NCBI GenBank assembly: GCA_965649295.1 | Contig: CBFGKH010000001.1 | Location: forward strand, 65,657 to 129,656 | DNA length: 64,000 bases | Direction: 5' to 3' | Origin: a candidate division WOR-3 bacterium | GTDB lineage: Bacteria > Hydrothermota > Tepidihabitantia > Tepidihabitantales > Tepidihabitantaceae | In this document: piece by piece, positions 3,260-60,573 of the stretch | How positions within the stretch are numbered: position 1 is the stretch's first letter | How the letters are laid out: each line of letters starts with the position of its first letter | Position numbers and translations under genes: made by a program | The notes under the pieces: model-generated | The model's database searches: none | What the model saw: the letters and a program-made list of their open reading frames with translations, nothing else | What the model was told of the DNA's origin: nothing

Positions 3260-3323
3260 CTATCCATCCCACACGAGAGAAGTTTGACATTCCGCCACTT
3301 GTGGAGTAGACTTTCCCGTCAGC

Positions 3324-5045
3324 TTGATGAGCGCAATACTGACGCTGGGTTTACTACTGGGGATGCACCTCGGTCAATCCGAGCTGCCGCCTAATCCGCC
3401 TGTTCCTGCTGCTCCGTTCCGCCTCGCGTCCTTTGTTTTCCAGCGACTGCCATCGTTTGCCTATGCCGGCGAACCGTTTGCCGTGGTCATCGAGACTCGC
3501 GACGAGGTTGGCCAACCCTATCCATATTCAGGCCTTGCTCGAATCTCGACGACACTGGACCAGAACTTTGTCTATGTTACGCCAACCCAGGTTTCATTCC
3601 TAAATGGTCGCTGCAGCACCTACCTAAGTCTCACTCTCGCTGACACCCTCCAGCTGCGCTGCTCTGACCCAGGCAACCAGGTGACCAGCACCAGTGCACC
3701 GATTGAGGTCTTTCCCGGCCTGCCCAGCCGGTTTCTCACTGTCATGCCTGGTGAAGAACTGGCACCCGGTTCGCCGACCGGTCGTCGGATAGCGCCCGAT
3801 GCCCACATTGCCGGTGACACGTTCTCCTTTGATGTCTATGTCACCGACTCGTGCTTCAACGTCATCCGAACTCGCCAGGATAGTGTTACTTTTTCGGCAA
3901 CTGACAACTTTTCCCGGCTGCCGACTGGCGGTCGTCTGACCAACGGTCAGGGACGGTTCACCGCCGCGATTCGAACTGCCGGTACTCATCGGCTTCGCAC
4001 CCGGGCAGCTGAGTCGTCCCCAATCCGGCCCGACACATCATCACCGTTCGCAGTCCTGCCTGGCGGTTATCAGCAACTGCAGCTCCTTCTGCCTGGAGAA
4101 CAACTGCTGCCCGGTGACACCACCACTTCGATCTGGCAGACACCTGGGAAGTCAGGCACACCGACACCTCAGTTTCTGCGCACACCGTTTCCGGTTCGGG
4201 TAGTCGCCTGCGACCGCTGCTGGAATCGGACCACTGGACTTGGCGACACAATAACCCTCAACTCCAACTCGGTCATTAGTTTCACCCCAACAATGGCAGT
4301 GCTCGACGATAGCGCGGTGCTATCGCTTGAGTTCGGCACAGCCGGACCAAGCCAGACCATTCGCGCCGTCAGCACCAGAACTGGCCGGGCTTCATACTGG
4401 AACTACATTGAGATACGTGCCCGCGGCGCCCGCCTGTTCGTTCGGGCACCGGACACTGTTCGGGCCGGCGAGACCACCCACGTTGAAGTCACAGTTCTTG
4501 ATGCCAATTCCAACCCAGTAGTGGCAACCCGTTGTGACTTCCAGGTTACATCCGGCCGGGGTGAGATACTCGACCCAGCCCTGTTGACCGACACCCTTGG
4601 TCGCTGCCAGGCCCGTTTTCTCTGCTCGCGGGCGGTTTTCACTGAGACGGACTCAATTCGTATCCGCTCTGGCACTGCTGATACAACCATCGCCATCGCC
4701 GTCACCGTTCCCGATAGCGCAGTAATGAAAGGCCAGGTTGTAGCATTCCCTAACCCATTTGGCAACCCATCCGGTAACCGCACCTCTACCGTCTTGACCT
4801 ACAATCTACCCTACGGCGCTGACGTGACGCTAATGATTCATGACCCCTTCGGCAACGAAGTCCTCACCCGCCGCTTCACCCGTAACCAGCCTGGCGCTCT
4901 TGCTGGCATCAACCAGGTTCGCTGGGACGGAACCAACAGTCAGGGGCGCCGTGTTGCCAGCGGTATCTATTCGGTGCTGGTAATCGCCCAATCGCACACT
5001 GGCATTGCCTATCGTGGCACAACCCGCGTCGGAGTCGTATGGTAG
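3324..5045 (+). CDS. Secreted Ig-like-repeat protein with C-terminal FlgD-Ig-like domain
   Basis: Signal-peptide-like N-terminus MMSAILTLGLLLGMHLG. The C-terminal ~100 aa read AFPNPF...ADVTLMIHDPFGNEVL...VRWDGTNSQGRRVASGIYSV, the FlgD immunoglobulin-like fold signature (WDGtd..G..v.sGvY). The stop overlaps the next gene's start by 7 nt. Confidence 0.7.
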   Translation: MMSAILTLGLLLGMHLGQSELPPNPPVPAAPFRLASFVFQRLPSFAYAGEPFAVVIETRDEVGQPYPYSGLARISTTLDQNFVYVTPTQVSFLNGRCSTYLSLTLADTLQLRCSDPGNQVTSTSAPIEVFPGLPSRFLTVMPGEELAPGSPTGRRIAPDAHIAGDTFSFDVYVTDSCFNVIRTRQDSVTFSATDNFSRLPTGGRLTNGQGRFTAAIRTAGTHRLRTRAAESSPIRPDTSSPFAVLPGGYQQLQLLLPGEQLLPGDTTTSIWQTPGKSGTPTPQFLRTPFPVRVVACDRCWNRTTGLGDTITLNSNSVISFTPTMAVLDDSAVLSLEFGTAGPSQTIRAVSTRTGRASYWNYIEIRARGARLFVRAPDTVRAGETTHVEVTVLDANSNPVVATRCDFQVTSGRGEILDPALLTDTLGRCQARFLCSRAVFTETDSIRIRSGTADTTIAIAVTVPDSAVMKGQVVAFPNPFGNPSGNRTSTVLTYNLPYGADVTLMIHDPFGNEVLTRRFTRNQPGALAGINQVRWDGTNSQGRRVASGIYSVLVIAQSHTGIAYRGTTRVGVVW

Positions 5046-6331
5046 CTCGGCTTAGTCTGTTGCTCATTGCCACCTTCGCCTTCGCCAGTGAAGGTGGACT
5101 GGCCGGTGCCTTCCTTGACTATGGTGCTGGGCCGCGCAGTCTGGCAATGGGACGTGCCTTCGGCGCGGTCGCTGACGATGCCCAGGCCGGTTACTTCAAC
5201 CCCGCCGGACTCTTCCAGCTCAACGCCCAGGAAGTCATTCTTGCCCATTCCCAGCTCTATGGTGCCAGGATGGAATACATCGCCTATGCTTTACCGACTC
5301 GCGGCCTGGGCACCTTCGGTCTCGTCCTCATCAACTACGGCGCCGAAGGTATCGAATCGCGCACGCCCGAAAACAACCGCTACCAGAACTACATCTTTGC
5401 CGAGAACGCCTATCTTGCTTCGTATGCTTACAACCCCTGGCCTTTTCTTGGCTTTGGTGCCAATCTGAAGCTTGTCACCAAGAACCTCGCTGAATACGCT
5501 GACGTCAGCGTGGGAGCTGATGTCGGTGCCCTATTACTCTGGCCAAGACCACTAAGCTTTGCCTTATCGGTCCAGAATCTGATACAACCCAGCCTCCAGC
5601 TCGCGAACATCGCCGACATCTACCCGCGCGGCCTGCGTGCTGGCAGTGCGGTGCGTCTGCTTGGTGGCCGGGCAGTCATCGCCATGGACGCGACGATGCC
5701 ACTCCTTCAGGAAGCTGACCCAGTCACCGGCTATCTGACCAACCGCTTCGTACCCCGTCCAGTGCTGCACGGTGGGGTCGAGTTTGCGCTTGTTCCCGGG
5801 GTACTCATCCAACGTATCGGTATTGACCCGGACTACATAACCTTTGGCCTTGGGATTCACAAGTCCTGGGGTCGCATGGGCATTGGCGTTGACTACGCGG
5901 TGCTCTTACACCACCGTTCTGACTATCTAATGACGCCTACCCACAAACTCGGGGCCTTCCTCTCATTTGCCGGATTCCGGGTCTGGATTGATGCCCAGCC
6001 CTCGCTGTTCAGCCCAACGCCTGAAGATAAACAGAACGTCCTCTGGATGGACGTTCGCCTGATGACCAGGGCCGCGGTCAAACGCTGGCAGGTACTAATC
6101 AAAAATCATCTCGGTGAAGTCGTCCGCTCCTACAGTGGCTGGGACCAGCCGCCGCTGCGGCTCACTTGGGACGGCCTTGATGATGCTGGCCGACTGGTGG
6201 CTGACGGCCGCTACAGCTACGACATCGTCGTCGTTGACCAGCGCGACCGCTCGCTTAACTTCAGCGGCAGCCTGACCGAAGTCCGAACCCGCGGCCCTGA
6301 GGGCCGCTTCGAGATTCGCCCGAACCAGTAA
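5039..6331 (+). CDS. PorV/PorQ-family (T9SS-type) outer-membrane beta-barrel protein with C-terminal FlgD-Ig-like domain
   Basis: After the signal peptide the N-terminus reads LDYGAGPRSLAMGRAFGAVADDAQAGYFNPAGL, the hallmark start of the PorV/PorQ/UPF0164 family. The central part has alternating beta-strand character. The C-terminal ~85 aa read LRLTWDGLDDAGRLVADGRYSYDIVVVD, an FlgD-Ig-like domain. Confidence 0.65.
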   Translation: MVARLSLLLIATFAFASEGGLAGAFLDYGAGPRSLAMGRAFGAVADDAQAGYFNPAGLFQLNAQEVILAHSQLYGARMEYIAYALPTRGLGTFGLVLINYGAEGIESRTPENNRYQNYIFAENAYLASYAYNPWPFLGFGANLKLVTKNLAEYADVSVGADVGALLLWPRPLSFALSVQNLIQPSLQLANIADIYPRGLRAGSAVRLLGGRAVIAMDATMPLLQEADPVTGYLTNRFVPRPVLHGGVEFALVPGVLIQRIGIDPDYITFGLGIHKSWGRMGIGVDYAVLLHHRSDYLMTPTHKLGAFLSFAGFRVWIDAQPSLFSPTPEDKQNVLWMDVRLMTRAAVKRWQVLIKNHLGEVVRSYSGWDQPPLRLTWDGLDDAGRLVADGRYSYDIVVVDQRDRSLNFSGSLTEVRTRGPEGRFEIRPNQ

Positions 6332-6337
6332 CTGACA

Positions 6338-8824
6338 ATGACCGCGCTGCTCATCCTTGCGCTCGTTAGCGCACTTAGCCAGACCCAACTCCGTTCACTT
6401 GTTGAACGGTACAATCAGGCTCAAACCGCCATTGAGTCTCAAGACTACAACCGGGCCGGTGGGATACTGGGCGGGCTCGTTCGGGAGTATGGCAAGAGTG
6501 AGTTCGGCGATGAACTGCGCTATGCGCAGGCTGAGACCTATTTCAACCTTGGCCGTTACGAACAAGCACACAGCCTGTTTGCCAGCATCCTTGATCGGAC
6601 TCAGTATAGCTATATCAAACCCGAAGCCATGTATGGTCTGGCCATATCAGCGATAATGCTCGGCAACTATCGTGAGGCCCAACTAACCCTGGAGCGGCTG
6701 GCCAAGCAGCCTGGTTATGACAAAGACAGCCGGACCAACTTTGCAGCCGGTGTGCTCTACTACTTCCAACGCGATTACGACCAGGCTATCGCCCGGCTGA
6801 CCGGCGTCGAGTTACCCGAAGCCAAGTTCTTTCTCGCCAAGAGCCTCGCCCAGACCCGCAAGCCACTGCCGGCCCTGCTCAAGTTCCGCGAGATTGCTAC
6901 TGACGTGCCGAATACGCCACTGGCAACTATGGCCCATTTCGCGGCTGGCCAGGCCTTGTTCCTCAACCATGACTACGACGGCGCTCGGGCAAAGCTCCAG
7001 TTCTTCATTGATAACTTCCCGTTCTCACCGCTGGCTGATTATGCGAGCTATTACCTGGGCTGCGCCCTAATTGCCCAGAAGCAGTATGCGGCGGCTGCCG
7101 ACCGGCTGCTGCCGCTCACTCGGCATCAGAACAACATCCTCGCTGCCCATGCCAACTACTTCATCGGTCAGACCGACCTGGCGCTAGGCCAGGCCCAACG
7201 GGCAGTTGAACGGTTCCAGCGCGTCCGGGCCAACTTTCCAAAGACCAAGGTCGCCAGCTTTGCTAACCTCCAGCTCGCTCAAGCCATGCTCGCCACCGCC
7301 GATACAATGCAGACCCTGCTTGCCACCAGTCAACTGGCAACGATGTTCCGTACCGGTGAACTGTCCGGCGTTGGCAACTACTTGTCTGGCGTCATCTGCT
7401 ATCAGCTCGGCCAGTATCAGCAGGCAGCCGAGCAGTTCGAAAACATCCTCACGACCTATGCGCAGACTGCCTTGCGCGAGCCAGCCTGCGCGATGCTGCT
7501 CCTCGCCTACAACAGCGCTGGCCAGTTCGAAAAAGCAGTAGCAATTGGCGCCAAGTATGTTGCCGACTATCCTGAGGACACGACCGGTTGGCGCGCCCGC
7601 ACACTCTACTTTCTCGCCGAAGGCCTGTATTACGACCGCAAGTACAGCGAAGCCGACGCCTATTACCAGCAGGCCTACACCCATCCAGCCGGGTCCGACA
7701 TCGCCGCTTATGCACGGCTCGGCCGCTGCTACTGCCTCTATCACAACGGCCGCCTGAACGAGGCTGCCAGCGGATTTCAGGGACTGCTCAACGCCCGACT
7801 CGCCGACACCCTCTTCACGATCAGCGCCTACCTAGGCTACGGCTACACACTGTTCAACCAAAAGGAATACCTCAAAGCCCTCGACGTCTTCGAACCACTA
7901 CTAGCGACATTTCCCGACAAGCCGCTGGCTGGCATTCCTGGCTACTTCTACGCCGGCTACTGCTACTATCAGCTTCAGTACTACGGCCAGGCAGTCGAAA
8001 CCTGGACTCAGCTCCTGACCCGCTACCCAGAAAAGAATCCGAAGGCTGCCGAAGCCGCTTTTCGCACCGGTGACACCTATTTCAAGGCGCTCGAATACGA
8101 CAAGGCCATCGCCACTTTCAACTTCGTAATCGAGCGCTACCCCTTCTCTGAGTTCGGCCCGCCCGCACAGGCACTGATTGCCCAATGCTACTACAACCGC
8201 AAGCAGTTCCTTGACGCAGTGCGCGAGTACCAGAAGTTCCTCGACCTCTATCCGTCCGACCCACAGGTCCCGAGTGTCCGCCGCAGCCTGGAAATGAGCT
8301 ACTATCTGGCTGGCCAGCAAGACTCAGCGGTCATGGACGACTTCCTTCGTCGTTTCCCCACCTCTGAGCTCGCTGCCGAGGGCCAGTATAACCGCGGCAA
8401 AGCACTCTACGACGCCGGCAACTACGAGGCTGCGATTGCCGAACTCCAGCAGGCCGTTGTCAACTTCCCTGGCTCGGCGATTGCTGGCGACGCTCAACTG
8501 CTCACTGCCGAGGCCTACTCCCAGCTTGGTCGCTGGCCCGAAGCCGCGCTCGCCTACGAGAAGTATTTCGCCTACTTCCCCAACCACGAGCAACGCGCCG
8601 GCGCCACCTTCAATCTTGCCTCTGCCTACTTCAATGCCGGCGAATACCAAAAGAGTCTCGACCGATTCCAGCAGGTGATAGACTCATTCCCGGAATCGGA
8701 GTACGTTGAGAGTGCCCGGGCCAACGTTGCCCTGGCCCGCCGTCGCCTCGGCGCCGCCGTCGGCGGCGAAGCCATGCCCAACGAGACACCGCTTCCGCCA
8801 ACCCAAGGAGAAACAAAGCAATGA
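6338..8824 (+). CDS. Tetratricopeptide-repeat protein (828 aa, YbgF/CpoB-like TPR but far larger)
   Basis: Signal peptide followed by more than 15 degenerate 34-residue repeats, with the recurring A..Y..G.Y..A...F..(L) TPR pattern. The stop overlaps the exbB start (ATGA). Confidence 0.8.
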   Translation: MTALLILALVSALSQTQLRSLVERYNQAQTAIESQDYNRAGGILGGLVREYGKSEFGDELRYAQAETYFNLGRYEQAHSLFASILDRTQYSYIKPEAMYGLAISAIMLGNYREAQLTLERLAKQPGYDKDSRTNFAAGVLYYFQRDYDQAIARLTGVELPEAKFFLAKSLAQTRKPLPALLKFREIATDVPNTPLATMAHFAAGQALFLNHDYDGARAKLQFFIDNFPFSPLADYASYYLGCALIAQKQYAAAADRLLPLTRHQNNILAAHANYFIGQTDLALGQAQRAVERFQRVRANFPKTKVASFANLQLAQAMLATADTMQTLLATSQLATMFRTGELSGVGNYLSGVICYQLGQYQQAAEQFENILTTYAQTALREPACAMLLLAYNSAGQFEKAVAIGAKYVADYPEDTTGWRARTLYFLAEGLYYDRKYSEADAYYQQAYTHPAGSDIAAYARLGRCYCLYHNGRLNEAASGFQGLLNARLADTLFTISAYLGYGYTLFNQKEYLKALDVFEPLLATFPDKPLAGIPGYFYAGYCYYQLQYYGQAVETWTQLLTRYPEKNPKAAEAAFRTGDTYFKALEYDKAIATFNFVIERYPFSEFGPPAQALIAQCYYNRKQFLDAVREYQKFLDLYPSDPQVPSVRRSLEMSYYLAGQQDSAVMDDFLRRFPTSELAAEGQYNRGKALYDAGNYEAAIAELQQAVVNFPGSAIAGDAQLLTAEAYSQLGRWPEAALAYEKYFAYFPNHEQRAGATFNLASAYFNAGEYQKSLDRFQQVIDSFPESEYVESARANVALARRRLGAAVGGEAMPNETPLPPTQGETKQ

Positions 8825-9528
8825 TTCTTGGCCGGAGTCTTTTCGACATCTTTCGCTCCAGCATCGTGATGGTTGCCCTGCTTATCGCCTCCATCGCGGC
8901 CCTGGCGCTAATTATCGAGCGATTGTGGTATTTCTACCGCAACCGTTTCAACACTGGCAAAGGCTTGGTCGAACTACGCCGCCGACTACTTAACGGTGGG
9001 CCAAACGCGGCCTTGGAATGGGCCAAAACCCAACAGAACCCCATGGGCCGGATGTTTGTTGTCGCCCTCGAAAACCTCAGTCTGTCCAGTGACGAGCTGG
9101 CCGACCTGCTCTACAGTCTCATCCTCGAAGAGCGACTGCGGTTTGAACGGATGCTTGGCGGTATGGGCACGCTTGCCAACGTCGCCACCCTGCTCGGCCT
9201 GCTCGGCACAGTCACCGGTCTCATCAATGCCTTTGCCAACATCGCTGCCACTGGCTCCGGCGGACCAGCCGTTGTCTCGCGCGGCATTGCCGAAGCCCTC
9301 ATCACCACCGCCTTTGGTCTATTCATCGGTATCCCGACACTCTTCTTCTACAACTACTTCTCCAAAAAGGCTGCCGATATCGCCATCATGCTCGAAAGCG
9401 CCTCTGACCGGCTCGTCGTCCTACTATCCCGAACTCAGTCCGCTAACCAGCAACCAGCGCCGGTTGCCGCTCCGCCCCCACCGCCGCCCAAGCCCCAGCC
9501 GACAGAGGACACTAACTGGAAGTTCTAA
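8821..9528 (+). CDS. exbB: MotA/TolQ/ExbB proton-channel protein
   Basis: 235 aa with three TM helices, IIERLWYFYR at the N-terminus and the conserved LGLLGTVTGLINAF...TAFGLFIGIPTLFFYNYF C-terminal helices. The C-terminus carries a Pro-rich tail. Confidence 0.85.
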   Translation: MILGRSLFDIFRSSIVMVALLIASIAALALIIERLWYFYRNRFNTGKGLVELRRRLLNGGPNAALEWAKTQQNPMGRMFVVALENLSLSSDELADLLYSLILEERLRFERMLGGMGTLANVATLLGLLGTVTGLINAFANIAATGSGGPAVVSRGIAEALITTAFGLFIGIPTLFFYNYFSKKAADIAIMLESASDRLVVLLSRTQSANQQPAPVAAPPPPPPKPQPTEDTNWKF

Positions 9529-9941
9529 TGCGTCGCCGGCCGGTTGAACGTCCCCGCAACGAACTGATTCTCACCTCGCTCGTTGACATCGCCCTCTCAC
9601 TGGTCATCGGCTTCATGGTGGCAATGCCGCTCTTTTTTGAAACCGGTATCTTTGTCTCGGCTCCAGCGGCAACCCGCGCCGGCCAGAACGAACCTGGTTC
9701 CGACATCAAAGCGAACATCTATCTGACCGACGACGGCCGCACCCTGCTCAACGAGTCACCGGTCACCACCGAAGAACTGGCCGAGCTGCTACCCAAGCTA
9801 CTCGATCGCAGCGTTGAGAAACGAGTGATAATTGCCACTGACGACCAGGTCGTGTATGATAGGGTAATGCGCATACTCGACCTGGCCAAACAATCTGGCG
9901 CTGCTGACCTGGCGCTGCTGCGCCGCCGGAGGGCACCATGA
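9528..9941 (+). CDS. exbD: ExbD/TolR biopolymer transport protein
   Basis: 137 aa. The N-terminus reads ELILTSLVDIALSLVIGFMV, the ExbD single TM helix with its conserved Asp, followed by a periplasmic domain. The start overlaps the exbB stop. Confidence 0.85.
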   Translation: MRRRPVERPRNELILTSLVDIALSLVIGFMVAMPLFFETGIFVSAPAATRAGQNEPGSDIKANIYLTDDGRTLLNESPVTTEELAELLPKLLDRSVEKRVIIATDDQVVYDRVMRILDLAKQSGAADLALLRRRRAP

Positions 9942-10333
9942 AAGGCCCGACCAACGTTGATATCCTGCCGATGGCTGCTGTCGGCCTCATTTTGGTTCTC
10001 ATCATGATGGTCGTATCGCCGCTGGTGATTACCCGCAACAGCACCCCGGTTGAGCTGCCCCAGACCCATACATCGGAACGGAAGGTCGAAAACGACATCA
10101 ACATCACCTACACGATCGATGGCCGGCTGGTGATGGACGACCAGCCGGTCAGCGATTACAACGAACTGCAGAACCTGCTACAGGCAGCGGTAAGTCGAGA
10201 TCCCTATGTTCTTGTCGTCGTCCGCGCTGACAAGGAATGCCTCCATTCTCACGTCCTTGACCTTTTGGCCTGTGCCCGTCGGGCCGGCGCGCTGCGCATC
10301 GCCTGCGCCACCAAGCGGCTCAAGGAGGGATGA
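9938..10333 (+). CDS. exbD: ExbD/TolR biopolymer transport protein (second copy)
   Basis: 131 aa with the ExbD-type anchor DILPMAAVGLILVLIMMVVSPLV. It overlaps the previous gene by 4 nt. Confidence 0.8.
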   Translation: MKGPTNVDILPMAAVGLILVLIMMVVSPLVITRNSTPVELPQTHTSERKVENDINITYTIDGRLVMDDQPVSDYNELQNLLQAAVSRDPYVLVVVRADKECLHSHVLDLLACARRAGALRIACATKRLKEG

Positions 10334-11241
10334 TGACATTCGAATCCAAGCGCTACCGCGGCACCGAAATAGCCATCGCCATCTCGGTTCTCCTCCACGC
10401 CATCGGCTTGATACTCGCCTCGCGGCCAGCTCCTGAAGCCAGCACCGCTGCCGACCTGCAGGAAGTCTCGTTCATGGACGTGACCTACCGCCCCGAAGTT
10501 GCCAAGATTCTTGCCAAAACTGAAATCCCGGGTGGCGGCGGCACTGACGCGGCCACCGCCACGGCACCAACCTACTCTGCTGGCATCGCCGCCGACGAAG
10601 TTCCAGCCATTGACCTCTCGGCCAAGCTCGAACGCGACAACTCTCAAGCCAAGATTGACCTCGACCGCTATGAACTCGACCGCGGCGACAACATCAACGT
10701 CATCCGGCTCGGCGGCTCCGGCTCGACCAAATCCACCGAGGAGATTCTTGCCCAGCCCAAAGTCGAACTGTCACGCAGCCTTGGCCGTGGTAGCGGCACC
10801 GGCCTGCGCGGCGTCCCCGGCATACCCCAGCCTACTGCCCAGCTCACCATCGAAAGCCGGCCCCTTGCCAAACCGGCTGCCCGGCCCTTGCCCACGGTTC
10901 CGACTGCTGACCTGCCCAAAGTCACCGCCCCGGTCAGCCGCGGTACCAACTTCATGGTTGCCGGCCCGATATCCCAGCGCGAGATTACCAGAAAAGTTGT
11001 CCCGCGCTACCCCAAGTGGGCACTCGAACGCCGCATCTCTGGCACTGTTGTCGTCCGGCTCTGGGTTCAACCCAACGGCCAAGTCAAAGGTACACCCACC
11101 GTTGAGTGCAGCTCCGGCTATCCGGACCTCGACCAGGTCGTGATTGATGCTCTGCGCGCCTGGGAATTCGCTCCGCTCGGCCCCAATGTCAAAGCTGAAG
11201 ACCAGTGGGGCGTAATCACCTTCAAGTTCACTCTCTCCTAA
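10330..11241 (+). CDS. tonB: TonB/TolA-like energy transducer (TonB C-terminal domain)
   Basis: N-terminal TM anchor, Pro/Ala-rich spacer, and C-terminus TVVVRLWVQPNGQVKGTPTVECSSGYPDLDQVVIDALRAWEFAP matching the TonB_C fold consensus. Overlaps the previous gene by 4 nt. Confidence 0.75.
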   Translation: MMTFESKRYRGTEIAIAISVLLHAIGLILASRPAPEASTAADLQEVSFMDVTYRPEVAKILAKTEIPGGGGTDAATATAPTYSAGIAADEVPAIDLSAKLERDNSQAKIDLDRYELDRGDNINVIRLGGSGSTKSTEEILAQPKVELSRSLGRGSGTGLRGVPGIPQPTAQLTIESRPLAKPAARPLPTVPTADLPKVTAPVSRGTNFMVAGPISQREITRKVVPRYPKWALERRISGTVVVRLWVQPNGQVKGTPTVECSSGYPDLDQVVIDALRAWEFAPLGPNVKAEDQWGVITFKFTLS

Positions 11242-11242
11242 C

Positions 11243-12106
11243 ATGCTGATTGCTGGCCTGCTCCTGCTCTTGGCCCAGCCCGCCGCCTCGAACTCCGACC
11301 AGCACGCCATCGGCGAAGAGGTCATCACCGGCCAGGCCGAAATCAAGATTACCGATACCAAACCCTACTTCTCGCCCCAGCTTGACCCGTTTGCACCAAT
11401 TACCGGCCTATTGGCCCCAGAAACCTACGTGCTCGACGACGCCCTGCTCCGGTCAATTGACTCAATGACCATTCCCCAGCAGTTCATCCGTTCCTCCTAC
11501 CTGCGGGTGCCAGTCGAACGCGGCTTCATCTACAGCGACGTGATGCTCTTTCTGCCGTCCTTCGAGACCCGAGTCGCCAACTGGGAACTGGTCATCGCCA
11601 ACTCACTCGGCGAGACGGTTCGCCGCATCAGCGGCAAGGGCCAGCCGCCCGCGGCTCTCTCCTGGAATGGCCGTTCCGACAAGGGGGAGATGATTGCCCC
11701 CGGTGAAGTCTATAGCTTCACCTTCAATGCCTACGACGCCCGCGGCAACCAGACTCGGATTCCCGGCACGCCGCAGCGCATCAATGCAGTCGCCTACCAG
11801 GCTGACGGTGAGTGGGTCGTCGCCATCGCTGCTGACCAGCTCTTTGCCGAGGGCAGCAACCAGTTGCTCGAACCAGCAGCCGCCCGCCTTGACGAGGCCG
11901 CCAATATCATCAAAGAGCACTTCCGCAAGGAAGTCGTGGTCTATGTCTATTCTGAGCAGGAGAATCTCTCTGCCGACCGCTGCCAAGTGATGCAACGGGA
12001 GCTCAGCCGCCGCGTGGTCCTGCCCCGCGAGGGAATCAAGGTTGCCCCGCGCTTCATCCCCGGGCTGCAGCCCAAGTTCTCCAAAGTCGAAATCCACATC
12101 CTCTAG
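11243..12106 (+). CDS. Pal/OmpA-like peptidoglycan-associated protein with internal FlgD-Ig-like domain
   Basis: Signal peptide MLIAGLLLLLAQPAAS. The internal segment WELVIANSLGETVRRISGKGQPPAALSWNGRSDKGEMIAPGEVYSFTFNAYDARG is FlgD-Ig-like. The C-terminal segment LFAEGSNQLLEPAAARLDEAANIIKEH...NLSADRCQVMQRELSRR resembles the OmpA_C peptidoglycan-binding motif (F..gS..L.......L..va..l...LS..RA..V...L). Confidence 0.55.
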   Translation: MLIAGLLLLLAQPAASNSDQHAIGEEVITGQAEIKITDTKPYFSPQLDPFAPITGLLAPETYVLDDALLRSIDSMTIPQQFIRSSYLRVPVERGFIYSDVMLFLPSFETRVANWELVIANSLGETVRRISGKGQPPAALSWNGRSDKGEMIAPGEVYSFTFNAYDARGNQTRIPGTPQRINAVAYQADGEWVVAIAADQLFAEGSNQLLEPAAARLDEAANIIKEHFRKEVVVYVYSEQENLSADRCQVMQRELSRRVVLPREGIKVAPRFIPGLQPKFSKVEIHIL

Positions 12107-15833: not shown

Positions 15834-18800
15834 TTAGTGCTTGAGTATCAGCTTGCGCGTGGCCGTAAAGGTTCCCGACACCATTCTGACATAGTAGATG
15901 CCCTCAGGCAGCATCCGCTCGCGCCAGTCACGGCCATTCCAATCAACCTGGTGGCGACCAGCAGGCAACGGCCCCGAGACCAACGTCCGAACCGCGTTAC
16001 CAGCCGCGTCGAAGACTGTTATTTCAAGCATCGCCGGCGTCGGCAGCGCAAAGCTGATGGTCACCCTCTGGCTGAACGGCGTTGGCCGAGCACTTTCGAG
16101 TGCAAGGCGACCAGGCAATCCTGCCGGCCGGTCAGCCAAACCCTGCGGCGGCAGAACTGTGACCTCGTTGTAGGCAGTGTCGTTGGCCGGGTCGACATCA
16201 CCGACAAGCGCGCTGTAGCAGGTAACCGGCAGCGTACCAACCGGCCCGGCTGTCCAGCGCGGGAATCGAATCGTGTCCTCGGCCCGAGGCTCAAGCCGGT
16301 GGGTCGTGTCGGCGCGGTAGGAAGTGCCAATCAGGAATGTTACCGGCACCCCTTCGCTGAAGCTCGTGTAGTTGCGCAGCACGGCAACCGGCGTCACCTG
16401 TTGGCCCGAGTCAATTCGACCGGTTGGCGCGATGATGGCCGTGATGCCAACGTCGTGGATCACGCGCTGGACTGTCACCTGCGCCCGGGCAGTGTCGTTG
16501 GCTGGGTTGGCGTCGCCCAGTAGCCGGGTGAAGCAAGTTATCGGATGGGTGCCAACCGGACTGGCAACCCACTGCCGGAAGGTGACAATGGCTGAGTCGT
16601 TGCCAGCGACCGCTACTGCTGTGTCAGCAATGTAGTAGGGCCCGATGATGAATCGCACCGGCACAACCTCAGGTTGCTGGGTGTAGTTGCGGACAACTGC
16701 CCGCGGCTGGATTACGGCACCGGAGTCAATAGTACCCACCGGCTGCAGAACACGGCTAACACCAACATCATGCGGCGCCGGCCGAACCATGCACTCAGCA
16801 TAGGCAGTGTCGTTGCGCGGGTCGGCGTCGCCGTCAATGCTGACCCAGGCCGTGACGTACATCAACCCCACGCTATCGGCGGTCCAATCGGGCAAGGCAA
16901 CAACCGAATCCCGCCCCGGGGCCAGCCTGACTTCTACTGCCTCATCGTAGAGTAGCACGTCCCGCGACTGCGTCTTCTCTTCCAGACCTTTTCCGGTCTT
17001 CTCTGCCCAGGCCTCGATTATCATACGCAGCACAAACGGCTCGCTGGTGTTGCCGTAGTTCGTTACCTGAACCAGTGGCGTGACGGTTGCTCCGGAATCA
17101 ATGTCGCCAACCGGTGCCTCAATCTGCCTTGCGGCAACATCGAGATAGCGAATGATAACGGTCTGCAGCAGAGTATCGTTAGCTGGGTTGGCATCGCCTT
17201 CGAGCCTTATCCAGGCAGTGGCCAGCAGCACTTGCGGGTCACGGGCAAACCAGTTAGTGAAAGTTGCGACCGCCGAGTCGCCGGGTTGAATCACACCCGG
17301 GTCAGCCACGTCGCTGTAGCCATCGCTGATGGTCAGAAAGACTCGCGGCTGCGAGGCAACCGAGCCGTAGTTGCGCAATACAATCTGCGGCTGAATCCGG
17401 TCGCCGGGGTTGACGATGCTCTCTGGCGCAATGAACCTGGTGACGCCGACATCAATTCCGGTCTGCCGGGCATAGACGGTGGCAGTGGCCCGGTCATTGG
17501 CCGGCACCAGGTCACCGCTCAGCATTGTCGAGCATGAAACCGCATACTGACCGATGCCAGGCGGTGTCCAGGGCGTGGCCGAGATGAGGAGGCTCTCGCC
17601 CGGCGCCAGCGTAATGTTGTTGACCGTGACGTTGTAGCCAGCGCCAATTCGGAAGCGGGCAGCAAAGACCTGGGTTGGTGAGCCGAAGTTACGCACCCAG
17701 GCCTGCGGAATGATGACCGTGTCCACCGGCACCGTGTCGCGCGGCGCAACAATTCGCAGGCAGCCGACATCACGATAGCTGACAATCACCGAAGTCTCTT
17801 TGATGTTGTTGACTGGGTCAGGGTCGCCGGTCGTGACCACACTACAACGCGCCACCAGCGTGCCGAACTCAGCAGCAGTCCAGCGCGGGAAGGCAACATG
17901 GGCTGTCTCGCCAGCGCGGAGCAGCCCGAGGCTCGTGCTTTCACGGTAGAGCGTGCCAATGGTAAAGAAGACCCGATAGAAGGCTGAGTCGGTCCCGATA
18001 TTGGCAACCCGGCAGCGCGGCGTCGCAGTGTCGCCAAGATTGAACGACCCGCGCGGCGCGTAGATGGTGTCGGCCCGAAGATTGCGGTCCACATAGCTGA
18101 GCCGTCCCAGCACCAGGCTGGTCCAGCCACCACTGCGGTCAGCCTGGCCGGCAAAGTAGACAGTATTGGTATCAAGCGCAGCGACCGCTGCTCCCAGCCC
18201 ACCCAGGCGATCGGGCGAATCGTAACGCACTGCCCAGAGCGTGTCCTTGTTGCTGCCGACCGGGTCGGTCTCGGTGTAACAGAGCGTCACGAGCACATCA
18301 CCGACCGTACCGGCAACATAAACCCGCCCGCCCTGATAGGCGACCTTGTAGCCATAGGCGTCATCTTCGCCATACACCGCACCAGCCGGACCCCAGCGAC
18401 TGACGAGTGTACTGGAGAAACGATTCGTGCAGATGATGTCGTTATCGTAGCTGAGCATCCCTGTCACATAAACATTGGGCGGATTGGCATTGTCCAGAGC
18501 GATGCTCGAAGCGTAGTCGTCGCCGTCATAGCCGCCAATGTTCAGGCTGCGCCAGTTGAGCAATGTGCCGGCGGAATTGAACCGGGCGACTGCATAGTTG
18601 TAGCCCTCGCTGATAATGCCGTCATCGTTGTAGTCAAACCCGCAGATGTAGATGTCGCCAGATGGAGCCAAGGCCAGGTCAAATGGCACATCAGCGTCGT
18701 GGATAATAGTGTTGGGATTGCGGTAGGTGCGACGCCAGAGCGTGTCACCGCTGGGCCGCAGTTTCATCGTCCACCATTCGAGGTCGAAGAATCGGTGCAG

Positions 18801-19520
18801 TCCGAAGCCGGTAACGACGACGTTCGAGTCCAGGCCGACCGCAATGGCGGTCGCGCAGTTGTCAAACTCAGCGTAGTCCTGGAAGAACCAGGGATGGACG
18901 TCGCGCTGCCTCAGCTTGCTCTCGCGGGCCAGCGTGTCGAGGACGTAGCGCCGGGTCCAGATGGTGTCGCCAGTTGCGCAACTAATCTTGAGAATGGTGT
19001 AGGCGGAAAGGTTGCGGGTTGAGTCAAACGCAGTACCGGCAATATAGGCAACACCGCCCGGCCCCAGTGCAATGTCAAAGGCCGCGTCATCATAAGGCCA
19101 GAGCGTCTTCTTGGCCCAGACCTGGTTGCCGATAGTGTCATATTTCACCCAGGAAATGTCGGCTCCGCGTGGCAGCAGGTTGTAGGTAACGCCAGCAACA
19201 TAGACATTCCCCTCACTATCAACTGCCAGCGCATGGGCCATGTCGTCCTGACTGTAAGTGTTACCGCCATAGGACTGCGACCAGCGTAGCTGGCCGTCGA
19301 GAGTGTAGCAGGCGGTGAGCATGTTCGTCACAGTCGGCCACTGCGGCGCTTCGCCCGAACCACAGATGTAGATACGGTTGCGGCCGGCATCAACATACAT
19401 GTCGGCCGTCATGTTGAACTGGTTTTGACTCTGACCGTCATAGAGCCGAGTCCAGAGCGTATCAATGGCACCGGCCAAGGCCAGGGCCGGTAACAGAACT
19501 ACCAGGCGGAGAAATCTCAT
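15834..19520 (-). CDS. Secreted T9SS cargo protein: N-terminal SBBP-type beta-propeller, about 8 CARDB-like domains, C-terminal type-A T9SS sorting domain
   Basis: Signal peptide MRFLRLVVLLPALALAG. Repeated xxVYVAG/YIAGT/VVTGFG blades. Repeated ~110-aa units (APxGxIDSG..V.P...V.NYG.....V.F.IG). The C-terminus ...ITVFDAAGNAVRTLVSG...HQVDWNGRD...GIYYVRMVSGTFTATRKLILKH is typical of a Por_Secre_tail domain. Confidence 0.8.
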   Translation of the reverse strand: MRFLRLVVLLPALALAGAIDTLWTRLYDGQSQNQFNMTADMYVDAGRNRIYICGSGEAPQWPTVTNMLTACYTLDGQLRWSQSYGGNTYSQDDMAHALAVDSEGNVYVAGVTYNLLPRGADISWVKYDTIGNQVWAKKTLWPYDDAAFDIALGPGGVAYIAGTAFDSTRNLSAYTILKISCATGDTIWTRRYVLDTLARESKLRQRDVHPWFFQDYAEFDNCATAIAVGLDSNVVVTGFGLHRFFDLEWWTMKLRPSGDTLWRRTYRNPNTIIHDADVPFDLALAPSGDIYICGFDYNDDGIISEGYNYAVARFNSAGTLLNWRSLNIGGYDGDDYASSIALDNANPPNVYVTGMLSYDNDIICTNRFSSTLVSRWGPAGAVYGEDDAYGYKVAYQGGRVYVAGTVGDVLVTLCYTETDPVGSNKDTLWAVRYDSPDRLGGLGAAVAALDTNTVYFAGQADRSGGWTSLVLGRLSYVDRNLRADTIYAPRGSFNLGDTATPRCRVANIGTDSAFYRVFFTIGTLYRESTSLGLLRAGETAHVAFPRWTAAEFGTLVARCSVVTTGDPDPVNNIKETSVIVSYRDVGCLRIVAPRDTVPVDTVIIPQAWVRNFGSPTQVFAARFRIGAGYNVTVNNITLAPGESLLISATPWTPPGIGQYAVSCSTMLSGDLVPANDRATATVYARQTGIDVGVTRFIAPESIVNPGDRIQPQIVLRNYGSVASQPRVFLTISDGYSDVADPGVIQPGDSAVATFTNWFARDPQVLLATAWIRLEGDANPANDTLLQTVIIRYLDVAARQIEAPVGDIDSGATVTPLVQVTNYGNTSEPFVLRMIIEAWAEKTGKGLEEKTQSRDVLLYDEAVEVRLAPGRDSVVALPDWTADSVGLMYVTAWVSIDGDADPRNDTAYAECMVRPAPHDVGVSRVLQPVGTIDSGAVIQPRAVVRNYTQQPEVVPVRFIIGPYYIADTAVAVAGNDSAIVTFRQWVASPVGTHPITCFTRLLGDANPANDTARAQVTVQRVIHDVGITAIIAPTGRIDSGQQVTPVAVLRNYTSFSEGVPVTFLIGTSYRADTTHRLEPRAEDTIRFPRWTAGPVGTLPVTCYSALVGDVDPANDTAYNEVTVLPPQGLADRPAGLPGRLALESARPTPFSQRVTISFALPTPAMLEITVFDAAGNAVRTLVSGPLPAGRHQVDWNGRDWRERMLPEGIYYVRMVSGTFTATRKLILKH

Positions 19521-30756: not shown

Positions 30757-31193
30757 TACTACCTCCTCACTCGCCGCAGCCGTACCCCAAAGCACGGCTC
30801 TTAGCGCTGGTAATCAGGTAAATCAGCAGGTATTGGTTACTAGACATTAGCAGAACTTGCTCTTTCGGGACGCATATCGTAGCGCAAAACCCCTGCCGGT
30901 CAAGCAAGATGGTTCGGCTATCATCAGCCAGACTGTAACTGAGTCCAGCCAACCCATCAATCTGGATCAACCAACTCCTTTCCCAGGGCTCGACTTCGAA
31001 CCTGAGCCGGCACCTTCCTATCGAGTGGCGTGGTCGCTGGTTGCCGCACCGACAGCAACCATGCCTACCCCGCCGACGCTTAGCAAGTGATGCTTTATCT
31101 GAGAGTACGCAGGGCTTGCGCCCGCTGGGCGCCACCACTAGACTATTCAGTAGTCGAGATACCCTAGCCAGACTGCCACAGGAGGCATTCTTG

Positions 31194-34100
31194 ATGAAAT
31201 TGGCCCGCTTGCTTCTTCTCCCCGCATTCGCTCTGGCGGGAACCTTGATTTACACCGCAGAAGTTAATCCGCAAGAGCTTCTGTTCTCGCGCCATGGTGA
31301 CTACGACTTGGTCCAGCTTGCCAATGGCGTGTTTGTTCCTAGGCCAGGTTACCCCAGCCTGCCCGAACTGCCGCTCACGCTCGTTGTTCCAGCCGGCGCA
31401 CTTGTCACCAAGGTCTCTGCCGAACCACTGGCAATCATTGAACTGGGTAACTACCGTATCATGCCGTCCCAACACGCCCACCCTATATCCAAACCTCCGA
31501 CTCACTACTTCACTCCGCCCATCCCTGCAATCTACAGGACAGACAGACCCTTTCCGGGTACCTACTGTCGTGATTTCACAACCGGCCTTGCCTCCGGATT
31601 CCAGTTGGTGAGCATTAGCCTCTGCCCGCTGCAGTACCAGCCGGCATCAGGCCGTCTTAGTCTCGCCAACAAGTTGCTGGTAACCATCAGCTATGCGGAC
31701 AATGTCTCAAGAACAACTGTCCTAACCCCTAGTCAGCGTGACAGGGCACTGATGTCGCTAATACCGCTTGTGGCCAATTCCCGTGACCTGAACCGTTTCG
31801 CACCCCAGACACTCGAATGTGATCTTCCCGAGATCAACTATCTCATCATCACCAACAACGCACTGGCTCCCCACTGGCAGGAGTTTGCCGACTATCGTTC
31901 AGCCCGTGGTCTGCGCGCCGAAATCAGAACCGTTGAGTGGGCGCAGCGCAGCTACCCTGGCCGTGACGCTCAGGAGTGCGTCCGCAACCTCATCATCGAC
32001 TACTATCAGCACCGGGGTCTCTCCTACGTCCTGCTGGCTGGCGACAATGCCCAAGTTCGCTGCCGCAAGATTCGCCTGAACGTTGAAGACGAGCAGGGTG
32101 ACATCCCCACCGATCTCTACTACGGTGGGCTCGACTACTCCTGGGATTCGAACAACAACAATATCTTCGGCGAGATGGCCGATTCAATTGACCTCTATGC
32201 CGATGTTCTGGTCGGCCGTGCCTCCGCCGATAACGTCCGTCAGATTGAGAACTTCATCCGCAAAGTTGCGATCTACGAAAACAGCCCAGCACCTGACTAT
32301 CATCGCCGCAGCCTCCTTCCTTCTGGCTGGCTTTGGCGCAGCATCGGCTATCATGGCAGTTTTCTCAACGACTCGATTGCCGATTTGACACCAGCTCCCT
32401 GGGTTGACCGCAAGCTCGTCAATCCGCGTAACTCGGCGGTTGTTGCCGAATCACTCGACCACGGCTTTGTCATTTTCGATCCTGCCGGGCACGGCAACGC
32501 CAGCGGCGTTTACGACGAGGACGGTACGCCCATCTATCTCGCCAGCAATGCCGCTTCTCAGCGCAACTATCGCCGTTACGCGATTATGACCTCACTTGCC
32601 TGCGACCCCGGCGACTTCGAGGCTGAGGACTGCTGCGCTGAAGCTGCGCTCAACTGTGACACTGCCGGCTGTATCGGCGTAATGATGAACTCCCGCTACG
32701 GCTGGGGCACACCACCAAGCATGGGACCATCTGAGAAGCTATGTGTCCGTTTCTGGGATTACTACCTCGTACGCAATCACACTGTCATTGGTGCGGCCCA
32801 CAACCGCTCCCGCGAAGTCTATGCTGGCCAGGCCCGTACTAGTTCACTCTGGCGCTGGTGTGTCACTGAGTTCAATCTTTTCGGTGACCCAGCGCTCGAC
32901 ATCTGGACCCAGGCGCCAACACCACTCACGATTGAAGCACCGGTCTCGGTTCCAACCGGCGCTCAGACAGTCGTGGCCACAGTACGTGCCAACGGCTCGC
33001 CACTCGCTGACGCCATCGTGACCGCTTGGAAAGCAAACGAGGTATTTGCTACCGCCAACACCAATGCCGCTGGTCAGGCCACCCTCCCAGTTCATGCCGT
33101 CACCACCGGCAGCATTCTCGTCACAGCCCGAAAACACGACTACCTTGCTGCCCAAGCCAGTGTTACCGTCACCCCAGGAGCGCCTGAACCGCTGATTCGC
33201 TACTCGTGCAGCAGTATTGATGATACCGGTGCCCAGAATCCAAACGGAATTCTCGAGCCCGATGAGACCGCTCGCCTGACTCTCACAATCCGCAATGCCG
33301 GCACTGGTGCGGCCACGAATACCCGCATCGTGCTGCGACCACTTACCGCCGGTGTCACCGCACCAGAATCAGTTGCCTGGTATGGCACTGTTCTAGCTGG
33401 TGACTCGGCGGCTGCCTCCAACCTGCTCATCACATGTGGTGGCAATGTTCTTCCCGGCGCGATAGTTCAACTGCTGGCGCTGGTCTCAAGCGATCAGAGA
33501 TACGACGAGTTTATCTTCGGTATCGAAATTGGTTACCCCGGCCGGGTCGCTGCTGATATTGACACTGGCGACTGCGCGCTGACGGTAACTGCCCGCGGAG
33601 CAATCGGCTTCGACCGCACCGGTACTATTACCGGTCTCGGATTCCGCTATCCCAAGAACGACACTTCTACTCTAAACACCGCCAGCTTCGCCATTAGCAA
33701 TGGGCCGAACTACGTTGTTGACCGCTTCTACAGCCAAAACGACCGGCTGGACACTGACTGGACACTTGCCGACTCCGTCCGGCAGCGCTATCCGCTTTGG
33801 AGCGCCGATGAGATGCTGACTGCCGCATTCAACGACGCCGGCCATGTTGACCCACGGTCAGTCACTGTTGGCCAGCGAGCCCTGGCAGCCCGTGCCGTCC
33901 CTGGTGCAGTCGTCCTCGTCTACGATATCACCAACCAGAATGGCACCACCCTTGAAAACGCCTATGCCGGCATCCTTGCCGACTTTGACGTCGATGCCCG
34001 CGACCGTTTTCACGACGATGCCTGGGTGCGACATGACCTTAGCGCAGTAATGATGCGCAATATCCTGCGCCCTGACCGCTACTGCGGCATCAAACTCCTG

Positions 34101-34652
34101 ACACCGGTCGCTCCGTTCCACGGCACCTGTCTCGACAACTCAGTTTACATCACTTCCGACTCAGGCATGAGCGAAAGCATGAAACACCGCGCCCTGACCG
34201 CTGAGATTGGCCTGCCTCAGTCGAATCGGACTTACAACTGGTCGGTTGCCATCGCGACTGGGCCACTGACCATTCCCCCCGGCTCGACCCAACGCGTTGC
34301 CTTCGCTTTTGTCGGGGCGGCCGGCTCGACTGCCTTCGAACAAACATGTGCTGCAATTCAGGACTGGTATGATGCCAATGTGGGGATCAAGCAGACACCT
34401 ACCCTTAGCCATCGCCAATCTGAAATCACGGTTCTACCCAACCCAACCCGTGGCACTCTACGGATCAACAGCTCGCCCCATATGCACCTGTGCGCTCTGA
34501 CGCTCTATGATTGCTCCGGTAATCTTGTCCGCAAGCTGGACACGAGAAGCCTAATGATCGATCTTTCCGACTTACCAACTGGTGCCTACGTCCTCAAGCT
34601 CGTGACTGACACTGGTCAGACAAGCACTGTCCGAATAGCCGTTTTGCGCTAG
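31194..34652 (+). CDS. Peptidase C25 (gingipain-like cysteine protease) with C-terminal type-A T9SS sorting domain
   Basis: GGAGG RBS 9 nt upstream of the ATG at 31194, followed by signal peptide MKLARLLLLPAFALAG. C25 core: YLIITNN...YVLLAGD...DLYYGGLD...ADVLVGR, catalytic His in DPAGHGNASG and Cys in MTSLACDPGDF. The C-terminus ...LTLYDCSGNLVRKL...GAYVLKLVTDTGQTSTVRIAVLR is a Por_Secre_tail-like CTD. Confidence 0.8.
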   Translation: MKLARLLLLPAFALAGTLIYTAEVNPQELLFSRHGDYDLVQLANGVFVPRPGYPSLPELPLTLVVPAGALVTKVSAEPLAIIELGNYRIMPSQHAHPISKPPTHYFTPPIPAIYRTDRPFPGTYCRDFTTGLASGFQLVSISLCPLQYQPASGRLSLANKLLVTISYADNVSRTTVLTPSQRDRALMSLIPLVANSRDLNRFAPQTLECDLPEINYLIITNNALAPHWQEFADYRSARGLRAEIRTVEWAQRSYPGRDAQECVRNLIIDYYQHRGLSYVLLAGDNAQVRCRKIRLNVEDEQGDIPTDLYYGGLDYSWDSNNNNIFGEMADSIDLYADVLVGRASADNVRQIENFIRKVAIYENSPAPDYHRRSLLPSGWLWRSIGYHGSFLNDSIADLTPAPWVDRKLVNPRNSAVVAESLDHGFVIFDPAGHGNASGVYDEDGTPIYLASNAASQRNYRRYAIMTSLACDPGDFEAEDCCAEAALNCDTAGCIGVMMNSRYGWGTPPSMGPSEKLCVRFWDYYLVRNHTVIGAAHNRSREVYAGQARTSSLWRWCVTEFNLFGDPALDIWTQAPTPLTIEAPVSVPTGAQTVVATVRANGSPLADAIVTAWKANEVFATANTNAAGQATLPVHAVTTGSILVTARKHDYLAAQASVTVTPGAPEPLIRYSCSSIDDTGAQNPNGILEPDETARLTLTIRNAGTGAATNTRIVLRPLTAGVTAPESVAWYGTVLAGDSAAASNLLITCGGNVLPGAIVQLLALVSSDQRYDEFIFGIEIGYPGRVAADIDTGDCALTVTARGAIGFDRTGTITGLGFRYPKNDTSTLNTASFAISNGPNYVVDRFYSQNDRLDTDWTLADSVRQRYPLWSADEMLTAAFNDAGHVDPRSVTVGQRALAARAVPGAVVLVYDITNQNGTTLENAYAGILADFDVDARDRFHDDAWVRHDLSAVMMRNILRPDRYCGIKLLTPVAPFHGTCLDNSVYITSDSGMSESMKHRALTAEIGLPQSNRTYNWSVAIATGPLTIPPGSTQRVAFAFVGAAGSTAFEQTCAAIQDWYDANVGIKQTPTLSHRQSEITVLPNPTRGTLRINSSPHMHLCALTLYDCSGNLVRKLDTRSLMIDLSDLPTGAYVLKLVTDTGQTSTVRIAVLR

Positions 34653-39859: not shown

Positions 39860-40052
39860 GAGGTAGAATACGCCTCTCCCCCTTGCAGTCAAGCAACTTT
39901 CCCTCTCCTCGACAGCGACTCAATTCACTGGTTGACAGTCAGTTGCCGTGTTCGCTATAATGAATCGTGCGTCGGAGTGTCTTCAATCCTATCACCATAC
40001 TGACGTGCTGTAGCTATAAGAAGCAGTCCCGCTCTAGGAGGAGGTGACCCGT

Positions 40053-41651: not shown

Positions 41652-41666
41652 AGGAGTTGCGAACCC

Positions 41667-60503: not shown

Positions 60504-60573
60504 TCACCTCCCCCTCGTTTGGCCGGTGCTATTTGACCGCAGAACATCAGCCAATAGAGTGTCTAATCATTGT

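Follow-up and report, generated by a model that had tools for sequence, protein, structure and literature searches.

A conserved WOR-3 operon combines genes for a Ton-type motor with a gene for a PorV-like outer-membrane barrel

Eight genes, here called g1 to g8, at positions 3324-12106 of a 64,000-nucleotide stretch from a candidate division WOR-3 bacterium (assembly GCA_965649295.1, contig CBFGKH010000001.1, forward-strand positions 65,657 to 129,656; the whole stretch is referred to below as the window) may encode, with a probability that we put at roughly one half, a dedicated trans-envelope machine of the WOR-3 lineage that is Ton-like and driven by protons, is specified by one operon and acts on a PorV-family barrel module. 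We favour this reading because the gene order is conserved between differing flanks, with the core g2-g8 kept even at 25-38% identity, and because the immunoglobulin-like (Ig) domains of g2 and g8 are paralogous, the transducer g7 combines S-x-x-x-H and YP motifs with a conserved linker and a short motif of g8 is conserved. The parts belong to known families, and none of the definitions of Tol-Pal, of Pal, of PorV (by its sequence cutoff) and of the type A C-terminal domain (CTD) of type IX secretion (T9SS) fits them fully. The initial annotation of this DNA had called the architecture undescribed, and indeed no account of the cluster was found in the literature searched: searches for WOR-3 together with TonB/ExbB, type IX secretion or T9SS found nothing, and searches combining PorV, ExbB/ExbD, TPR and FlgD returned unrelated papers only.

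The eight co-oriented, coupled genes of the initial annotation are confirmed as open reading frames (ORFs) on the forward strand with unchanged coordinates, joined from g1 to g8 at -7, +6, -4, -1, -4, -4 and +1 nt, all junctions thus falling between -7 and +6 nt. The run opens with g1 (3324..5045, 573 aa; signal peptide, Ig repeats and a C-terminal FlgD_ig or T9SS-CTD-like domain) and g2 (5039..6331, 430 aa; signal peptide, PorV/FadL-family barrel and a C-terminal FlgD_ig), which are followed by g3 (6338..8824, 828 aa), a protein that has a signal peptide without a lipobox and consists of tetratricopeptide repeats (TPR) throughout. The motor part comprises g4 (8821..9528, 235 aa), an ExbB/TolQ-type proton-channel subunit, the ExbD paralogues 1 and 2 encoded by g5 (9528..9941, 137 aa) and g6 (9938..10333, 131 aa), and the TonB-family transducer g7 (10330..11241, 303 aa). 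The last gene, g8 (11243..12106, 287 aa), encodes a signal peptide without a lipobox, an FlgD_ig module and a divergent OmpA-like domain. Family scans of g1-g8 upheld the calls of a secreted Ig-repeat protein (g1) and a large TPR protein (g3), confirmed the ExbB-ExbD-ExbD-TonB core with g4-g7 all above the Pfam cutoffs, and bore out the absence of TolB and YbgC among the eight genes, with no PD40/TolB domain in any of them.

Homologues of g2 and g8 occur almost exclusively in metagenome-assembled genomes (MAGs) named candidate division WOR-3, with more than 120 homologues of g2 in such MAGs at 60-98% identity. A scan of species-representative genomes gave 77 loci (cited by L numbers where they need to be told apart), whose six-frame ORFs were searched with the window proteins. 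The order g1-g8 is complete in 51 of 71 loci, the remainder being mostly cut by contig ends, and is seen in every WOR-3 or Stahlbacteria locus long enough for it. Median junction gaps are -4 to +16 nt across 55-63 related loci, and the recurrence of such short gaps argues that the tight packing is not a local accident; the flanking genes, meanwhile, vary between lineages while the order of g1-g8 stays. Searching 1.84 billion representatives with a g8 profile yielded further full-length relatives, and three relatives of 25-38% identity have kept clusters of the form barrel-Ig, TPR, ExbB, ExbD, ExbD, TonB and g8-like protein. Synteny is therefore held from 98% to about 25% identity, and the locus does not scatter among its relatives.

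A few loci deserve separate mention. A gap of ~6.7 kb lies between g3 and g4 in L070, and in L002, labelled Aminicenantales, g7 and g8 are missing after the second ExbD, perhaps through misassembly, perhaps because they were truly lost. One of the three distant lineages was labelled 'Thermotogae bacterium' by its submitters, a label that is unconfirmed, and the cluster in L084 (11955-20864) has capsule or polysaccharide genes on its flanks (for Poly_export/Wza, Wzz, a flippase and glycosyltransferases) that were not seen in other loci.

The motor genes are assigned at the family level. The channel subunit g4 matches MotA_ExbB (PF01618) with 97.6 bits against a cutoff of 22.9, and its nearest solved relative is ExbB of E. 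coli (E 7e-17), with TolQ next; its scores lie under the equivalog cutoffs of both ExbB and TolQ. Both ExbD paralogues score above the cutoff of PF02472 (g5, 66 bits; g6, 59 bits). The transmembrane Asp of ExbD and TolR binds protons, and in an alignment with the E. coli ExbD and TolR proteins g5 keeps this residue (SLVDIAL, residue 20), whereas g6 has Ala at the position (PMAAVG), as nearly all WOR-3 orthologues have Cys or Ala there. These sequences suggest a heterodimeric ExbD axle with one protonatable site in most lineages, since the Asp position of the second paralogue is taken by Ala or Cys. The exceptions that keep the second Asp are L037 and L083; in L037, where both ExbD proteins have it, the motor genes score unusually low, and the motor may have been displaced.

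The transducer g7 scores 56 bits with TonB_C and 63.5 bits with TIGR01352 (cutoff 27.1), and its only solved relative by sequence is TonB (1xx3). Its transmembrane helix carries the S-x-x-x-H motif (SVLLH, residues 19-23), and its TonB C-terminal domain, at residues 225-302 (window 11002-11235), carries the YP motif. The linker is conserved and not proline-rich, and its strongly conserved motifs (YRPEVAKV, IDL..KLDRSQA.IDLDRY and KSTEEILA) look like putative binding sites. The TPR protein g3 had been described as reminiscent of CpoB/YbgF, which is supported by a match to TIGR02795 (YbgF/CpoB) of 240 bits against a cutoff of 90, in nine stretches; YfiO/BamD and many TPR families also match. The architecture is, however, unlike that of a CpoB of ~250 aa because nine repeats are spread over 828 aa.

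A comparable combination of a TPR gene and a motor has been reported from the PVC group, in clusters with a gene for a TPR protein, a tolQ-like gene, paired heterologous tolR-like genes and a transducer with a vWA head (PMC12204202). The WOR-3 operon shares with them the TPR gene, the motor gene, two different TolR/ExbD genes and a transducer with an SHLS-type helix, but the vWA head stands in place of TonB_C and neither a PorV-like barrel nor an OmpA-like partner has been described for the PVC clusters. The same 2025 survey of TolA/TonB evolution, which did not cover WOR-3, holds that more 5:2-motor systems await discovery (PMC12204202).

The candidate partner of the transducer, g8, contains an FlgD_ig module (28 bits, cutoff 27; residues about 100-175, window 11540-11767) and the divergent OmpA-like domain (residues about 182-286, window 11786-12100). 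In its AlphaFold model, where pLDDT exceeds 85 for residues 110-287, the C-terminal fold is OmpA-like. Behind a variable Pro/Ala/Ser spacer comes a segment of 80 residues for which disorder is predicted in spite of its high conservation, and which opens with GEEVITG-AE-KI. We take the motif GEEVITG (residues 24-30; the EEVITG core is at window 11315-11332) to resemble TonB boxes, for example DTIVVTA. It is conserved in 31 homologues and persists as EEEIVAEAEYKI and DTEVVIRGESRLKV in relatives of 25% overall identity, the variants across deep divergence being GEEVITG, EEEIVAE and DTEVVIRG. A sequence search with g8 against solved structures returned noise only, and a Zeta_toxin match of 17 bits, under the cutoff, was dismissed as spurious.

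The AlphaFold model of g2 (pLDDT 74) has a barrel at residues about 65-311 (window 5231-5971) with the 14 strands of the FadL type, and its best structural match is PorV. The ORF at 5039-6331 thus does not model as a barrel unrelated to PorV, and in its structural part the earlier assignment to the PorV/PorQ family stands; the sequence score, on which it falls short, is weighed below. Behind the barrel follows an FlgD_ig module (31 bits, cutoff 27; residues about 335-415, window 6041-6283), the family match itself spanning residues 339-397. Since an even set of 14 strands places both barrel termini in the periplasm, the C-terminal Ig domain of g2 would face the periplasm, as that of g8 probably does. 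FlgD_ig scores above the Pfam cutoff in g1, g2 and g8, so that the initial annotation was right, at the Pfam level, in giving the same module to three members of the operon. It comes, however, in two subtypes: g2 and g8 have modules that are paralogues of each other (34% identity, E 8e-16), whereas that of g1 is a separate, T9SS-CTD-like subtype without detectable similarity to g8 (E 1.3).

Modules and barrels of these kinds were also seen in other settings. Spirochaete MAGs (Breznakiellaceae, Spirochaetaceae; L078 2990-8455 and L079 632-4687) encode proteins of 1350-1820 aa with 9-13 tandem FlgD_ig modules of the g2/g8 type. Between an EamA and a ComEC gene, L002 holds a 316-aa ORF (5067-6017), with equivalents at the same position in L003, L008, L018, L020, L028 and L063, that is weakly g2-like (25-41 bits) and may be a second PorV/PorQ-like barrel; it is absent from that position in the window.

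The first protein, g1, has four Big_1/invasin-like Ig repeats, recognised by 'v-v-D-x-x-x-N' motifs at residues 52, 167, 289 and 385, although all Big_1, invasin and MG2 matches in the family scan are sub-threshold. Its C-terminal domain, at residues about 475-573 (window 4746-5042), starts with FPNPFG and ends with RVGVVW, gives the FlgD_ig match at the extreme C-terminus (38 bits, cutoff 27) and matches the C-terminal domains of PorZ and PorU. The g1 tail shares 30% identity (E 3e-7) with that of a 1228-aa protein encoded elsewhere in the window (see below). The latter tail is positive for TIGR04183, the T9SS type A sorting domain; the g1 tail itself has no match to this model at E values up to 10. 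In 12 orthologues the last 100 residues are better conserved than the N-terminal repeats. Close relatives have g1 proteins of 550-570 aa, while in the distant clusters the passenger ranges from absent to more than 1800 aa and the terminal domain is constant. The g1 slot of L082 is filled by a 170-aa lipoprotein and a 177-aa protein carrying the CTD-like module, that of L083 by a protein of more than 1910 aa with the tail YPNPFNP ... KIGVFKQK, and that of L084 by only 121 aa, namely a signal peptide and the CTD-like domain alone, with the tail RVGVAW. Because the passenger varies and is lacking in L084, with the terminal domain constant, the CTD-like domain itself might be a barrel-binding subunit and not just an export tag; a role of g1 as mere T9SS cargo was down-weighted in view of the 121-aa slot of L084.

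Within the type IX attachment complex, PorU and PorZ keep their C-terminal domains and bind PorV and PorQ with them. The WOR-3 operon resembles these PorV-PorU and PorQ-PorZ pairs in that a gene for a PorV/PorQ-family barrel adjoins a gene for a protein with a PorZ/PorU-like C-terminal beta-sandwich. It differs from them in the additional C-terminal Ig domain and sub-cutoff score of the g2 barrel, in the linkage of the barrel to ExbBD-TonB instead of PorLM/PorKN, and in a partner that consists of the CTD only in one lineage.

The initial annotation had also likened the core of the locus to Tol-Pal, but the locus is not the organism's Tol-Pal equivalent. WOR-3 relatives carry a separate compact cluster of Pal, CpoB-like TPR, MotA_ExbB, ExbD and TonB_2 genes (L017 103-3135; L080 10001-13003; L081 10001-13032), with a Pal lipoprotein that has a normal OmpA domain, a CpoB-like TPR protein of 250 aa and a TolA-like TonB_2 transducer. 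This cluster lies 5 kb from the eight-gene cluster in one genome and elsewhere in another, and was not found within the 64-kb window; in the relatives no TolB gene adjoins it, and LemA and M48 peptidase genes lie 3' of it. Because the relatives possess this Pal-CpoB-TolQ-TolR-TolA set, the eight-gene cluster is an additional system and its assignment as the WOR-3 orthologue of Tol-Pal was rejected. The Tol equivalog models all score the window proteins below cutoff (TIGR02796, 92 against 221 bits; TIGR02801, 50-54 against 127 bits; TIGR02794, 22 against 59 bits).

In the machine that we propose, the ExbB channel and the two different ExbD proteins would form the inner-membrane motor, and the TonB-family transducer would dock on it via S-x-x-x-H. 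At the outer membrane, the CTD-like domain of g1 would dock on the g2 barrel in the manner of PorZ on PorQ and PorU on PorV, while the periplasmic Ig domains of g2 and g8 might form a pair or share a partner and the TPR protein g3 might scaffold g7 and g8 along their extended conserved segments. The TonB domain of g7 would grip either the N-terminal, TonB-box-like strand of g8, in analogy to TolA and TolB, or a strand of the barrel, so that proton flow would pull on the barrel module with g8 braced on the cell wall. Such a pull could serve to gate the barrel, or to release or position the surface protein that bears the CTD, together with its passenger. A more far-reaching version, which we regard as rather unlikely, has a Ton-type motor working, in place of a 22-strand plug receptor, on a PorV/FadL-family barrel of 14 strands that a CTD-like Ig subunit caps. 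Proton-driven devices of the outer membrane would then be of three kinds, this one standing next to TonB-dependent receptors and Tol-Pal, and it might form an evolutionary bridge from Ton systems to the way in which T9SS handles CTD proteins through PorV.

Several observations weigh against the dedicated machine. The window encodes a TonB-dependent receptor at 60364-62997, which needs some TonB, and g7 may serve ordinary import too or instead. The cluster FSU_2396-FSU_2403 of Fibrobacter succinogenes encodes OmpA, TPR, TPR, ExbB, ExbD, ExbD and TonB (PMC6851124), and since no PorV-like barrel is reported in this run, the motor-TPR part can stand without a barrel module; conversely, in Coatesbacteria-like genomes a g1/g2-like pair adjoins flagellar genes and not a Ton motor. 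With PorV_fam NF033709 the sequence of g2 reaches only 64.2 bits where the NCBIfam cutoff is 90, the match spanning model positions 5-201 of 326. As for g8, its OmpA-like domain appears to be without the canonical peptidoglycan-binding motif (GHTD...N..LS..RA), and its family has no profile similarity to the WOR-3 Pal family (hhalign, probability 0.2%). Because this profile comparison finds nothing, the label 'Pal-like' applies to the fold only: of the earlier description as 'OmpA/Pal-like' the OmpA-like fold stands, while neither a Cys lipobox nor a match to PF00691 (Pfam scan) was found.

The strongest competitor, which we consider possible but would bet against, is a composite operon in which g3-g7 form a housekeeping Ton system for ordinary receptors and the envelope proteins g1, g2 and g8 merely share its transcript. 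It gains from g7 passing the TonB family cutoffs, from the Plug-domain receptor in the same window and from the only other transducer seen in relatives being the TolA-like TonB_2 of the Pal cluster. Known Ton systems share the ExbB, ExbD and TonB_C families above Pfam cutoffs and the S-x-x-x-H and YP motifs of the transducer, as well as the order exbB-exbD-exbD-tonB, which is found in many bacteria of the FCB group. The Fibrobacter run speaks for a composite operon as well. Its OmpA and TPR proteins occur in an outer-membrane multiprotein complex, and its motor genes are up-regulated on cellulose (PMC6851124). Judged by the reported gene descriptions, it too joins OmpA-family and TPR proteins of the FCB group to ExbB-ExbD-ExbD-TonB, but OmpA comes first and neither a PorV-like barrel nor a CTD-protein is reported there. 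Pairs like g1/g2 without a Ton motor in other phyla would likewise fit two units that were brought together. An association of this sort, however, does not sit well with a cluster of which at least g2-g8, a few nucleotides apart, stay in fixed order between changing flanks at identities from 98% to ~25%, nor with an Ig module that is paralogous between g2 and g8, a conserved TonB-box-like motif on g8, or a g7 linker whose conserved, non-proline sequence is unlike the spacers of generic TonB proteins. The operon also departs from known Ton systems in having no 22-strand, plug-bearing receptor (the only one seen lies 48 kb away) and instead a PorV-like barrel of 14 strands together with the giant TPR protein and the Ig-OmpA-like protein, and in a second ExbD that is usually without the Asp.

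Less probable, in our estimate, is a second, divergent Tol-Pal-like system for envelope integrity, in which the motor pulls g8 and the barrel and so tethers the outer membrane to peptidoglycan, with g3 as an oversized CpoB. The operon and Tol-Pal have in common a motor of the 5:2 type, a transducer whose C-terminal domain is TonB/TolA-like, TPR repeats resembling those of CpoB (nine matches to YbgF/CpoB in g3) and a protein of OmpA-like fold, and in both the partner may be gripped by an N-terminal strand, the conserved strand of g8 recalling the N-terminus with which TolB is bound by TolA. Universal conservation under strong constraint, with g2 at 60-80% identity among many species, would also suit this reading. 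Yet the TolB propeller and YbgC are absent, g8 is no lipoprotein and bears no Pal sequence signature, g7 scores as TonB and not as TolA, and the more canonical cluster already exists in relatives. We consider it very improbable that the operon encodes a device for surface-adhesin transport or gliding like Agl-Glt of Myxococcus, with the motor shifting or exposing the variable passenger of g1 at the cell surface. In Agl-Glt, TonB-like and TPR proteins work together with a TolQR-type motor, barrels of the outer membrane and a surface adhesin, a part list that is the same in kind, and the Ig-rich g1 passenger is variable and adhesin-like; g7 also has a weak match to the AgmX/PglI C-terminal domain (20.9 bits, cutoff 40). 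The likeness does not extend to sequence-level membership: no homology to Glt proteins exceeds any cutoff, and Agl-Glt has barrels of another type and many more components. The slot of L084 holds no passenger that could be moved, and there is no evidence for gliding of WOR-3 cells. These alternatives and the dedicated machine are not fully exclusive of one another.

The Coatesbacteria-like genomes mentioned above are three non-WOR-3 genomes, one of them named Candidatus Coatesbacteria, with distant relatives of g1 and g2 in a conserved block (L075 87-9110, L076 3-15154, L077 1-15187). Its order is a g1-like gene, a 439-aa ORF, a PorV-like barrel with FlgD_ig and a second, PorV/UPF0164-like barrel with fn3, directly 5' of the flagellar genes FlgF, FlgG, FlgA, FlgH (L ring), FlgI (P ring) and FlgK. 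No ExbB, ExbD or TonB gene was found near the block in these three loci. It may be that motor-driven machines in general have such a barrel-plus-Ig module as their partner in the outer membrane.

Around the operon, a promoter-like site on the forward strand lies directly 5' of g1 (3284..3312; TTGACA-17 nt-TAGACT, 10 of 12 matches); it is putative, being a match to a sigma-70-like consensus and no proof of function. No terminator-like site was found 3' of g8. The 5' neighbour of g1 is a divergent ComEC-like gene, and 3' of g8 follow genes for a TMEM260-like protein and FabH. That the host uses T9SS, as had been presumed, agrees with three window proteins that carry TIGR04183 sorting domains, and the T9SS parts visible in the window are only CTD-bearing cargo and C25 peptidases. 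They comprise a C25 peptidase with propeptide and Por_Secre_tail (31041-34652, forward strand), a 1513-aa Kelch/CARDB protein with Por_Secre_tail (46394-50935, reverse strand), another C25 peptidase, whose PorU-like match is weak (54747-58088, reverse strand), and the 1228-aa beta-propeller protein (15834-19520, reverse strand), the tail of which passes both FlgD_ig and TIGR04183. The receptor-like protein at 60364-62997 (forward strand) has CarboxypepD_reg, Plug and OMP_b-brl_3 domains. In addition, T2SSE (with an MshEN domain) and T2SSF genes at 40044-42896 (forward strand) represent an ATPase/platform pair of a type IV pilus or of type II secretion.

Proton-driven 5:2 motors provide the force for import (Ton) and envelope integrity (Tol-Pal) as well as for flagella, gliding and type IX secretion, and each new coupling of such a motor represents another route for energy to the outer membrane, which is poor in it. 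Across an uncultured phylum and its deep relatives, a motor of the Ton type is here tied genetically to a PorV-family barrel and to a CTD-like subunit, parts that in Bacteroidota belong to type IX secretion. If this coupling is physical, barrels of the FadL/PorV type can be operated by force, and the operon would offer a compact model, with eight proteins, for the holding and release of CTD domains on such barrels. Even if it should prove to be an elaborated housekeeping Ton system, it constitutes a strongly conserved envelope set of the WOR-3 bacteria, the members of which are mostly annotated as hypothetical or by generic domain names in the MAG records consulted.

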